A stretch of DNA of 16,377 nt from IMG/VR virus record IMGVR_UViG_2711768101_000011; one strand, given 5' to 3'. Below the pieces are notes generated by a model. That model saw nothing but the letters and a program-made list of their open reading frames with translations, was not told the origin of the DNA and did no database searches. The position numbers were made by a program, and so were the translations under genes. The stretch is from a virus (taxonomy: Duplodnaviria; Heunggongvirae; Uroviricota; Caudoviricetes). Within the stretch, counting starts at the first letter, position 1, and every line of letters begins with the position of its first letter. Positions 2,216 to 12,870 of this stretch are shown piece by piece.

Positions 2216-2418
2216 ATTTTCACTTTTTTAAATCCAACGACAGACGGCTGGCATTTAAGTATTGTGAAATATTATCAAATGTAATCATCATTGATTTACA
2301 AAAGATACATTTTGCCCCGAAAGGATTCATGTCAGAAACATCAAAAGATGATGTTCTATACTGGGAACCATGACAACACGGGCATCTAAAGTGAATATGG
2401 TTTGTAATATTGTCTACC

Positions 2419-2631
2419 TCAAAGCGCCACTACATGAACAGCGGCAGGACCTTTAGGTCCGTTCTCAATACCAAATTCAACTTCCTGATTCTCAGTTAAT
2501 GTTTTGAAATCGTTGCTCTGAATTGCTGAGAAATGGACAAACACATCTTTGCTGCCATCTTTCGGCGTGATGAAACCAAAACCTTTTTCAGGGTTAAACC
2601 ATTTCACTAAACCAGTCATTTTGTTAGACAT
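2419..2631 (-). CDS. cspI: CspA-family cold shock protein (70 aa)
   Basis: [38 protein letters not shown]... carries RNP1/RNP2-type cold-shock domain motifs; AAGG Shine-Dalgarno; long AT-rich leader typical of csp genes; cspI versus cspB assignment is from context. Confidence 0.85.
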
Positions 2632-2992
2632 AATTATTACCTTTTGAAGAAATTAGCCCTTGGGCAGAATGGTCCGAAAAAAATATCAGAGAGAAAAACC
2701 AACAAGGAAATCTCAAGAGGTACAAATAATAAAATTATAACAATGACTGCTTCAGATAAATTTGTAACAAACCAGAACACCATTAACGCATGATTAACCA
2801 CCCATAGCAAGGATTACTTTTGTAAAGAAAAACACAGCAATGAAAGAATAGCTTTATTTATTAATAAAACGTGTCATTCTGATTAAGACCTTTTATCTTA
2901 CCCTTAAGATTTCAGGAATTTTGGCTCATGGAAGAGTCCTTTTTATTTAAATTTTACATTCCGCGATGTAAATGTTCCGATTTAATATTACC

Positions 2993-5154: not shown

Positions 5155-6350
<1,196 letters not shown>

Positions 6351-10681: not shown

Positions 10682-10933
10682 TTATTCTTCTGCAAAAGCT
10701 GAAAAGCCTGCTTTTATTCCGATCTCTTTCAGTGCCTGTAATGAAGTGACAAACTCACCTTCGCGCAAGATAAATCCGTCTGTCACTCGACCATCCACAA
10801 AATTAATTAACGCAGCCCCATTCTTTCGCAAACACATAATGCGGTAATGACTAACAAGATTTCCATTTTCAACGCACACAGCATAGAGGCCATCTTCACA
10901 AAAAATTTTACGCAGTTCTTCGATGTTCATCAT
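10682..10933 (-). CDS. rem: Rem-like small prophage protein (83 aa)
   Basis: Length and position (between hok and ydfU) match Qin rem; GGAAGGA Shine-Dalgarno; sequence identity to rem is from imperfect memory. Confidence 0.5.
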   Translation of the reverse strand: MMNIEELRKIFCEDGLYAVCVENGNLVSHYRIMCLRKNGAALINFVDGRVTDGFILREGEFVTSLQALKEIGIKAGFSAFAEE

Positions 10934-11048
10934 CAGAATCCTTCCGGATAATTAGCTCTCCCCTTTAAGGGACCATCCCTCTTATCCCTGCGCGCTACTT
11001 AAGTATTTTTGATTCTATTCCGGCACCGTCCAGAACTTCAAACGCGTT

Positions 11049-11080
11049 GAAAATAAAAACAAAAACCCGCCGAAGCGGGT
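11049..11080 (-). terminator. Rho-independent terminator at the 3' end of the hok transcript
   Basis: On the minus strand, ACCCGC-TTCG-GCGGGT hairpin followed by TTTTTGTTTTTATTTT, about 70 nt after the hok stop. Confidence 0.55.
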
Positions 11081-11149
11081 TAAGTGCGAGTGCGTTGAGG
11101 ATGCTTGCCACATCAGAGGTGGCGAGGGATTTCTCCCTCGCCGGGTCTC

Positions 11150-11305
11150 TTACTCCTCAGGTTCGTAAGCTGTGAAGACAGCGACCTCCGTCTGGTCGGT
11201 TCGGATTCGTACCTCGCAGAGGTCTTTCCTCGTTACCAGTGCCGTCACTATGACGGTTAAACAGATGACGATCAGGGCGATTAACATCGCCTTTTGCTGC
11301 TTCAT
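11150..11305 (-). CDS. hokD: Hok-family type I toxin (HokD/RelF-like, 51 aa)
   Basis: MKQQKAMLIALIVICLTVIVTALVTRKDLCEVRIRTDQTEVAVFTAYEPEE; AAGGAG Shine-Dalgarno before the internal ATG; the ORF-track ORF extends in frame upstream to 11362. Confidence 0.8.
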   Translation of the reverse strand: MKQQKAMLIALIVICLTVIVTALVTRKDLCEVRIRTDQTEVAVFTAYEPEE

Positions 11306-11480
11306 AGCCTGCTTCTCCTTGCCTTTCGGCACGTAAGAGGCTAACCTACATGTGTCTAGCATGAAATTGGCCTCAGATTAATGTTAAGCGTCTTGCAGGA
11401 CGCGTAATGTTAACTGGGGCTTTTCTCTATCTGCCGTTGATGTTCATGCCCGAGGCAGATAGCCTCAAGCACCCGCAGCC
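11306..11480 (-). promoter_or_regulatory. hok mRNA leader region with structured elements (possible antisense/sok-equivalent region)
   Basis: Perfect 9-bp inverted repeat CTATCTGCC (11427-11435) / GGCAGATAG (11454-11462); hok loci are known to be controlled through leader structure and an antisense RNA; no sok promoter was positively identified. Confidence 0.3.
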
Positions 11481-11802
11481 ATTCTACTTAACTACCGTTA
11501 CCTCTCCAATATGAAATCAATCAGAAAGGTGATCCATAAGAACAATAACAAGACAATAAATTGCCATTACAGCCACAATAGCCAGCGTGCATTTGAGAAC
11601 CAGCACATAAATCTCCTGCTCTTGACGTATACAGGCACTGATAAATATGTGTCTTCGTGCTCGTTACTTCAATACGTAAGCGTCAGTTGCGCGTAATCAA
11701 ATCAGACAACCGACTTTAAACCAGGGACAAACAGCAGGTAAAATAATCAAACGTTATTTTAAGCCATATCATGGCTGCAAGATTTCCTCTAATTTCAACA
11801 AG

Positions 11803-11839
11803 ATGAGCAGGTCATTGCTTGCACTGATGACCTGCTCAT
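11803..11839. repeat. Perfect 13-bp inverted repeat (hairpin or protein-binding palindrome)
   Basis: ATGAGCAGGTCAT - 11 nt - ATGACCTGCTCAT, seen directly; about 80 nt downstream of the QueH-like gene stop. Confidence 0.6.
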
Positions 11840-11917
11840 TAATCATGATTATTTGAAAATTAAGGTAGGCGTACTATATATAGAAACACTGCTACGCTCC
11901 GTTGGCATAATATAAAA

Positions 11918-12601
11918 TCATTCCTGGCCTTCTTTACCGTAGTGGAGTTGACCAATTTTGATTAGAGGGCGTCCCTGAGATTTGCGGTGTAGATTGGTAT
12001 CGCGCAGTGAATACACGCAGCCACAATATTCCTGCTGATAGAATTGTTCGCGCTTGCTGATTTCAATCATGCGGGAAGAGCCGCCCTGCTTTCGCCAGTT
12101 ATAATCCCAGTACACCATGCCCGGATAATACGCGACGGCTCGCCGTCCACAGTCGTTAACCTGCTGCATATTTTTCCAGCGTGAAATGCCCAGTGAGCTA
12201 CTGATCACACTGAAACCATTTTCAGCGGCATACAGCGCAGTCCGCTCAAAACGCATGTCAAAACACATGGTACAACGGATCCCTCGTTCAGGCTCCCATT
12301 CCATTCCTTTGGCTCGCTCAAACCAGTTGTCTGTGTCGTAATCAGCATCAATAAATGGCACGCCGTGTTGTTTAGCAAAGCGAATATTCTCATCCTTACG
12401 AATTAAATACTCTTTCTGAGGATGAATGTTCGGGTTGTAGAAAAAGATGGTGTAGTCGATTCCCGAGGCCTGAAGCGCCTCCATCACTTCACCGGAACAT
12501 GGAGCACAGCAAGAGTGCAGTAATAGTTTTTTTGCCCCGTTTGGGAGCTCCAATTTGGGGCGTTTGAAATCAGCAACAGTCATAAATGTGTTTATGAGGT
12601 T
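11918..12601 (-). CDS. DUF208 / QueH-like Fe-S protein (epoxyqueuosine-reductase-like)
   Basis: [13 protein letters not shown] motif near the N-terminus plus CTMC and YCGC Cys motifs, consistent with the DUF208 (QueH) family as I remember it; start uncertain (12601 or 12580), no clear Shine-Dalgarno. Confidence 0.6.
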
Positions 12602-12636
12602 CATGAAAATAGCAAAAAGTGTAGCATCAGAACGGG

Positions 12637-12870
12637 CTATCGGAAACAGATGTCTAAATCTGGTAATGTCTGCTTTTGATGCAAAGCAGACAACCACGGC
12701 AGCGCACGAAAATCAGCGATAATGTCGGGATTAATAATCGGGTGACGTCCATCACATAGCGAATGTTCCTCTTTCCTGATATCGCTAAATATCGACCATT
12801 CGTCATTCTTATCGAACCAGAGCATGCGACTGCCACAGCACATGTCGAGAATGGTAGCCGATGTACTCAC
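12637..12870 (-). CDS. Hypothetical small Cys-rich protein (77 aa)
   Basis: GTG start overlapping the upstream stop (GTGA) with GGGAGG Shine-Dalgarno inside the upstream gene; motif [14 protein letters not shown] loosely resembles a SAM-binding motif I but the protein is too short for a methyltransferase. Confidence 0.4.

Follow-up and report, generated by a model that had tools for sequence, protein, structure and literature searches.

The hok/sok locus (parB) of plasmid R1 is plasmid-borne and has proven post-segregational killing activity. A lock between the tac and fbi elements of its mRNA has been described. In the open form tac is paired with the ucb box, and the mok Shine-Dalgarno box GAGG, which was defined by mutation, is released (PMC9841398). 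Mutations in the last hairpin destabilise the truncated hok mRNA of R1 (PMC9841398). The Stx2 phage Sp5/VT2-Sakai/933W carries hokW-sokW (mokW): HokW is toxic, sokW counteracts it, and the locus aids Sp5 lysis of cells after mitomycin C (PMC8621323). E. coli K-12 contains hokC (gef)/mokC/sokC, with IS186 immediately downstream, and the Qin prophage gene hokD (relF). The latter is co-transcribed with relB and relE, located directly upstream (the relBEF arrangement), and integration of relBE is reported to have truncated the ancestral hokD ORF from about 70 codons to 51 (PMC6379469).

We analysed a hok locus in a window of 16,377 nucleotides (IMG/VR record IMGVR_UViG_2711768101_000011; the window is the whole stretch of DNA, and all positions refer to it). 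Positions 11049-11510 very probably hold a type I hok/sok/mok cassette that is self-contained and of the hokD/hokW subtype, with a proposed mechanism similar to that of R1 and Sp5. It lies in a defective lambdoid E. coli prophage of the Qin type, with the replication genes on one side and the antiterminator gene Q on the other. Such a cassette is already known: it is a textbook type I toxin-antitoxin, close to the characterised hokW-sokW and present in most E. coli genomes. The window thus holds an ordinary complete hok/sok copy, and its discovery value is small.

The locus is about 93% identical over 416 nt to hokW/mokW/sokW of VT2-Sakai (Sp5), belongs to the same subtype, and all features map collinearly. 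The two cassettes differ at the C-terminus of the toxin (TAYEPEE in the window, VDYESEK in HokW; the window protein also has G37D) and at three bases of the Sok 5' tail (GUCUAGCAUG... in the window, GUUCAGCAUG... in sokW). The genome positions are also different: the window cassette is found between replication genes and Q, whereas the Sp5 cassette is near the tail-fibre end. The host prophage, in contrast to the hokW-sokW phage, is defective. The same cassette, with 98.7% identity, is present in the complete phage genome record HannyBb.

The leaders of R1 and the window align end to end and share tac, the 5' metastable hairpin, the ucb/anti-Shine-Dalgarno box, the mok Shine-Dalgarno box, mok, sok, the 3' hairpin and fbi, and the helices covary across the family. 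The R1 and window Hok proteins are 41% identical. Mok of the R1 type (two copies in our collection, L080 and L082) is in the +1 frame, whereas the window mok is in frame with hok, and the window copy is prophage-borne. HokC of K-12 is 80% identical to the window protein and also has an in-frame mok (MLNTCR... against MLDTCR... in the window). Its antisense sokC is annotated at the equivalent place, but it is shorter, 59 nt, and lacks the hairpin insertion of the window. Mok, sok, tac/fbi and the fold-back elements are all present in the window, and none of them is disrupted.

Elements of the cassette

The following features were assigned.

11150-11305 (-): hok toxin ORF, 51 aa, HokD allele with G37D (Pfam PF01848, 76.6 bits)
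11164-11167 (-): UACG TadA editing motif at Tyr47; candidate edited A at 11166, Tyr to Cys
11315-11320 (-): hok Shine-Dalgarno box AAGGAG, read from the sequence, 9 nt upstream of the ATG; kept in K-12
11150-11362 (-): mok frame, 70 codons, in frame with hok (N-terminally extended Hok), from the ORF list; collinear with the annotated mokW and mokC
11371-11374 (-): mok Shine-Dalgarno box GAGG, read from the sequence, 8 nt upstream of the mok AUG
11354-11424 (+): predicted sok antisense antitoxin RNA, 71 nt, transferred by alignment from the sokW misc_RNA of AP000422
11319-11347 (+): candidate sok promoter, -35 box TTGCCT (11319-11324), 17-nt spacer, -10 box TAACCT (11342-11347); same sequence as the hokW-sokW promoter
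11481-11508 (-): putative hok promoter, -35 box TGGAGA (11503-11508), 16-nt spacer, -10 box TAGAAT (11481-11486), from a consensus scan
11054-11474 (-): predicted full-length hok mRNA, about 420 nt; 5' end deduced, 3' end at the terminator
11463-11474 (-): tac, 5'-terminal GGGUGCUUGAGG, pairing with fbi in the minimum-energy fold; element names follow PMC9841398
11427-11462 (-): inner helix of the tac stem-loop, a hairpin whose 9-bp stem CUAUCUGCC/GGCAGAUAG is perfect, from the sequence and the inverted-repeat list
11416-11421 (-): ucb/anti-Shine-Dalgarno box AGCCCC, predicted to sequester the mok Shine-Dalgarno box in the closed form; pairs with the GAGG region in the fold
11121-11142 (-): 3' UTR stem-loop, perfect 9-bp stem (11121-11129/11134-11142), expected protective 3' end of the processed mRNA
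11088-11100 (-): fbi CCUCAACGCACUC, directly before the terminator, with complementarity to the 5' end; assigned from tac pairing in the fold
11054-11081 (-): intrinsic terminator, 7-bp stem (11064-11081) and U-tract

The original prediction, made from the sequence of the locus, was of an intact, not decayed, hok gene with a complete 51-aa ORF, a good Shine-Dalgarno box, a structured leader containing a perfect 9-bp inverted repeat, and a clean terminator at 11049-11080. All these claims hold at the sequence level. The arms of the repeat are CTATCTGCC (11427-11435) and GGCAGATAG (11454-11462), the terminator, a stem followed by a T-run, agrees within a base or two, and every element that can be checked in the sequence is intact. 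The antisense sok-like partner, which the original prediction reported as unidentified, has been located: positions 11354-11424 (+) are a candidate sok gene, which overlaps the site where mok translation starts and is preceded by a promoter of its own.

The Hok ORF is the C-terminal portion of the 70-aa ORF 11150-11362 and covers the full Pfam HOK_GEF profile (E = 1.1e-21, bit score cut-off 22). It differs from HokD of K-12 and REL606 by a single residue, G37D. Position 37 is occupied by Gly in 40 of 50 distinct family proteins, and Asp, Thr, Asn, Ser, Ala and Met are also found there. PMC9841398 does not state in its main text whether changes at the R1 counterpart of G37 cause loss of function. 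Since the exact 51-aa sequence occurs on 843 contigs, under the name HokD, the G37D allele is a common natural variant. The Tyr47 codon is within TACG in 71 of the 71 family loci examined, and TadA editing at the equivalent site has been reported for hokC, hokD and hokE of K-12 (PMC5630033). The window protein may be toxic by analogy with hokW-sokW (PMC8621323) and with K-12 HokD, whose ORF served as the toxic control in a preprint where 42 of 45 assayed Hok homologues were toxic.

The mok Shine-Dalgarno box matches that of R1 in both motif and spacing class. The exact 70-aa mok-hok sequence is found on 196 contigs. Among 68 related leaders, 40 have mok in frame with hok, and 21 have it in the +1 frame that R1 uses. 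The remaining leaders comprise four with a 19-codon upstream ORF ending before hok, two without a start codon, and one with a short ORF. As the mok frame is not fixed, this suggests that it is translation through the region, rather than the Mok protein itself, that matters.

The Rfam sok model (RF01794) matches positions 11300-11474 over its full length with 114.3 bits (gathering score 59, E = 7.7e-26), and thus the features of the locus are not a chance pattern. This match is in the hok-sense orientation and reaches up to the hok start codon; hence it marks the regulatory leader of the locus and not the strand of the antitoxin. The sok candidate itself has a predicted fold of -28.7 kcal/mol (z = -5.1): a long hairpin, preceded by 15 unpaired nucleotides at the 5' end and followed by CUUUU. 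The 5' tail is complementary to the mok start codon region, and the hairpin is 16 nt longer than in the Rfam consensus. The northern probe used for sokW, YO-592, maps to positions 11354-11383. The sok promoter is too weak to be detected by the consensus promoter scan, and it was assigned from the hokW-sokW mutagenesis primers: the -10 box of sokW was defined by "pro-less" mutations (primers YO-421/422; Takada et al., PMC8621323). In RefSeq, only the hokD CDS is annotated here, with no feature over the leader containing sok and the mok start, so that, judging by the annotation, the toxin seems to be orphaned.

The hok promoter-like site predicts a transcription start about 7 nt downstream, near 11474, the position at which the Rfam model starts. 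The -10 box TAGAAT is invariant in four relatives. For most relatives, homology sets in after the -35 box and before the -10 box (11486-11510 (-)), and the -35 region differs from copy to copy, being supplied by the flank.

The 419-nt RNA from 11474 to 11056 has a predicted fold of -167.5 kcal/mol (z = -6.6; none of 100 shuffled sequences was as good), in which the 5' end is paired to the 3' end. The tac/fbi duplex has -18.5 kcal/mol, compared to -21.5 kcal/mol in close relatives. Two bases in the fbi region of the window are not seen in these relatives, and the lock is weaker by about 3 kcal/mol because position 11089 forms a G·U pair instead of G-C. When the 3' end is removed, the 5' end becomes free and forms a hairpin with nucleotides 19-29 (11446-11456), the metastable hairpin in R1 terms, and the unpaired probability of the mok AUG region goes up. 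The ucb box, assigned by homology with R1 (PMC9841398), is nearly invariant among the 68 leaders. However, the fold of lowest predicted energy does not pair tac with ucb: when this pairing is imposed, the penalty is +13.8 kcal/mol for the full-length RNA and +7.6 kcal/mol for the truncated one, and the model prefers the 5' hairpin. The open-form step is thus suggested by homology and the literature, not by folding.

Relatives vary in the 3' UTR stem but retain the pairing, one position being A-U, G·U or G-C, and by analogy with R1 this hairpin would protect the 3' end of the processed, active mRNA. The Rfam scan of the neighbourhood, 10900-12000, produced other RNA families only as sub-threshold matches. 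Those to snoRNA, SRP and rsmX look like chance. A match to isrK, a Salmonella prophage sRNA family, covers the hok 3' UTR, hairpin and terminator included (11060-11141 (-)); it scores 25 bits (E = 0.004), the gathering score being 50, and probably reflects merely a shared two-hairpin shape.

Prophage context and conservation of the leader

Over 10900-11950, E. coli YJ6 and ETEC6 are 100% identical to the window. The gene order in YJ6 (PGAP annotation) is cro/dicC-like, ydaT-like, O-like, DUF977, methyltransferase remnant, QueH, hokD, rem, hypothetical, ydfU, Q. The whole set is on the hok strand; behind it come the lysis and csp genes of a Qin-type prophage. The record has no annotation for sok or mok. 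Between the lysis genes and Q, an IS5-like ISKpn26 transposase gene (5302-6282 (-)) is flanked by partial HTH and AraC-type genes; given the transposase and the partial (pseudogene) genes, the prophage is defective. The early region, beside the methyltransferase remnant, contains the gene of epoxyqueuosine reductase QueH (11918-12697 (-), PF02677, E = 4e-65), an unusual passenger for a lambdoid nin-type region. An Rfam match to the cspA thermoregulator (114 bits, 2392-2776 (-)) is the leader of the prophage cold-shock gene cspI.

A strongly hydrophobic 29-aa ORF, MLVLKCTLAIVAVMAIYCLVIVLMDHLSD, lies between QueH and the hok promoter (11517-11606 (-)), with AGGAG 6 nt before its GTG start. It has no match among Pfam and NCBIfam families and no similarity to YnfS of K-12, which has the same length. 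Only six contigs carry the exact sequence, for which an annotation in E. coli B once read "membrane protein". In the RefSeq numbering of both YJ6 and REL606, one locus tag is missing between hokD and QueH.

When one genome per species was scanned, 79 hok loci were obtained, 73 of them with the full leader and ORF, in Escherichia, Kluyvera, Photorhabdus, Citrobacter, Pantoea, Sodalis, Enterobacter, Klebsiella, Buttiauxella and others. Six near-identical E. coli or plasmid-type loci on short contigs (L008, L026, L037, L080, L081, L082) are filed under Veillonella, Acinetobacter, Xanthomonas, Ferruginibacter, Streptomyces and Oscillibacter, and are most likely assembly contamination. Decayed copies also occur: in E. 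coli ECMA0423 (L011:533-856) the 5' end is mutated to GACTGCATGTGG and the 5'-3' duplex has just -13.4 kcal/mol, and in Shigella flexneri (L063:553-853) the hokC-type ORF is frameshifted.

The 5' ends of the leaders and their 3' partners change together: GGGUGC/GCACCC, GGGCGC/GCGCCC, GGGUGCCUGAGG/CUCAGGCGCCC, and a further pair in Sodalis. For 12 distinct 5' ends, the mean duplex energy is -21.7 kcal/mol with their own 3' UTR and -18.5 kcal/mol with non-cognate ones (permutation p = 5e-5). Statistics of the leader helices were collected from an alignment of 68 distinct leaders, with slid partners as controls. Overall, 82-96% of positions in the helices are paired, with compensatory changes, compared to 30-50% in the slid controls. 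In the 9-bp inner helix, pairing reaches 95.9% (slid controls, 32-42%) and four of the nine pairs have changed on both sides; the 5' hairpin is 92.3% paired, with five pairs showing compensatory change; and the stem formed by the Shine-Dalgarno and anti-Shine-Dalgarno boxes, which in the antisense RNA is the Sok hairpin, is 82-87% paired, again with changes on both sides. These patterns are in agreement with the published picture of the hok mRNA, and by sequence comparison the window copy has every element in register.

The relBE-less arrangement and K-12 hokD

The hokD gene of K-12 MG1655 resides in the same prophage context (ydfU, rem, hokD), and its ORF, Shine-Dalgarno box, 3' UTR, fbi and terminator are about 98% identical to those of the window. 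The near-identity extends from the terminator through the ORF and the Shine-Dalgarno box and breaks 15 nt upstream of the ATG; homology detected by blastn ends at position 11319, the first base of the -35 box of sok. Beyond the breakpoint, K-12 has relE and relB, which replace everything upstream of position -15, and K-12 Hok has G37. Given this break with relBE in place, K-12 has lost the leader, that is, the hok promoter, tac, ucb, the mok start and sok, and, as homology ends at 11319, the sok promoter as well.

The original prediction also stated that no relBE genes are found beside hok. A tblastn search with RelB, RelE, YdfV and FlxA of K-12 against all six frames of the whole window yielded only noise (E at least 5 for RelB and RelE), ruling out a relBE pair in a misread frame, and the largest minus-strand ORF between hok and QueH (11918 onward) encodes 31 aa. 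Hence the K-12 arrangement of relB and relE directly upstream of hokD is absent from the window. The absence of relBE thus stands, but it is not an oddity. The leader (11306-11510, at least 80% coverage) is present in 4279 of 5426 complete E. coli genomes (about 79%), the median copy number being two and the maximum nine, whereas the relE-hokD junction of K-12 is found in 1165 of them (21%). The lack of relBE is thus the usual state and not an anomaly. The relBE-less arrangement is both common and ancestral, the K-12 relBE-hokD locus being derived. K-12, the usual reference, holds the rearranged form and can mislead comparisons.

The cassette was also observed in Stx phages, P1-like phage-plasmids and other plasmids. 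On the other hand, the 407 bp upstream of it are complete in just 68 of the 5426 E. coli genomes. As the flank is rare and homology with relatives starts inside the hok promoter, the cassette behaves as a small mobile "moron" of about 450 bp.

Proposed mechanism and alternative explanations

By analogy with R1 and Sp5, the cassette would operate as follows. The weak promoter would produce a stable hok mRNA of about 420 nt, in which tac is locked to fbi and ucb covers the mok ribosome-binding site, so that the full-length RNA would be neither translated nor bound by Sok. The 5' hairpin would keep this closed state while transcription proceeds. Slow trimming of the 3' end to the hairpin at 11121-11142 would remove fbi, the 5' end would refold, and the mok start region would open. 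While the locus is kept, the unstable 71-nt Sok RNA would pair with the mok start and block translation of mok and hence of hok, the duplex being marked for RNase III. If the supply of Sok ends, mok and hok would be translated, and the 51-aa Hok protein would depolarise the inner membrane; TadA editing of Tyr47 to Cys may raise its toxicity. The candidate roles of the locus could be prophage retention, aid to lysis upon induction (shown for hokW-sokW) or exclusion of phages. The IS elements in the host prophage may make a role at induction moot.

An intact sequence may still belong to a physiologically silent locus, transcribed and repressed, but never providing enough active toxin, be it due to G37D, the need for Tyr47 editing, or residence in a cryptic prophage without a trigger. 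We consider this possible, though unlikely. Such silence would be in line with the lack of post-segregational killing or rifampicin activation by chromosomal hokA, hokB and hokC, as quoted in the preprint, and with the note that hokA, hokC, hokD and hokE had been described as inactive in K-12 (PMC5630033); moreover, the substitution G37D affects a mostly-Gly position, and the prophage harbours the ISKpn26 transposase gene and partial genes. However, the regulatory elements are all conserved and free of lesions, the cassette is nearly identical to those of the complete phage record and of the functional hokW-sokW, and the D37 allele, given its occurrence on 843 contigs, is not a private lesion. 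The toxicity of most assayed Hok homologues, with the K-12 HokD control among them, also argues for an active protein. A decaying remnant that merely looks intact is very improbable. Decayed copies do exist elsewhere, as exemplified by L011, with its mutated 5' end and weak fbi duplex, and by the frameshifted L063, but these lesions are absent from the window copy, whose ORF, mok start, both -10 boxes, tac, ucb, fbi and both hairpins match those of functional relatives.

It is scarcely conceivable that hok is controlled as in K-12, in third place in an operon of the relBE type, or by a different protein antitoxin nearby. The K-12 precedent of co-transcribed relB-relE-hokD is the sole argument for this, whereas neither relB nor relE is encoded in any frame of the window, the hok strand between hok and QueH has no ORF longer than 31 aa, and the complete sok/mok leader is present instead. 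Thus a self-contained type I cassette remains the preferred explanation.

A doubtful extension of this explanation is that the cassette is wired into prophage induction by its location. It lies within the early operon from cro to Q, in the same direction, and the sok promoter is convergent. Read-through from the early operon after derepression might then silence sok by transcriptional interference, or produce 5'-extended hok transcripts escaping the lock, or both. In Sp5, the cassette occupies a different place in the genome. If true, wiring of this kind would explain the so far unexplained RecA-dependent loss of sokW RNA in hokW-sokW, and the variable -35 region of hok would tune each copy to its host phage. 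The ancestral cassette and the truncated K-12 hokD form a natural pair, useful for studying how the insertion of relBE rewired the control of hokD.
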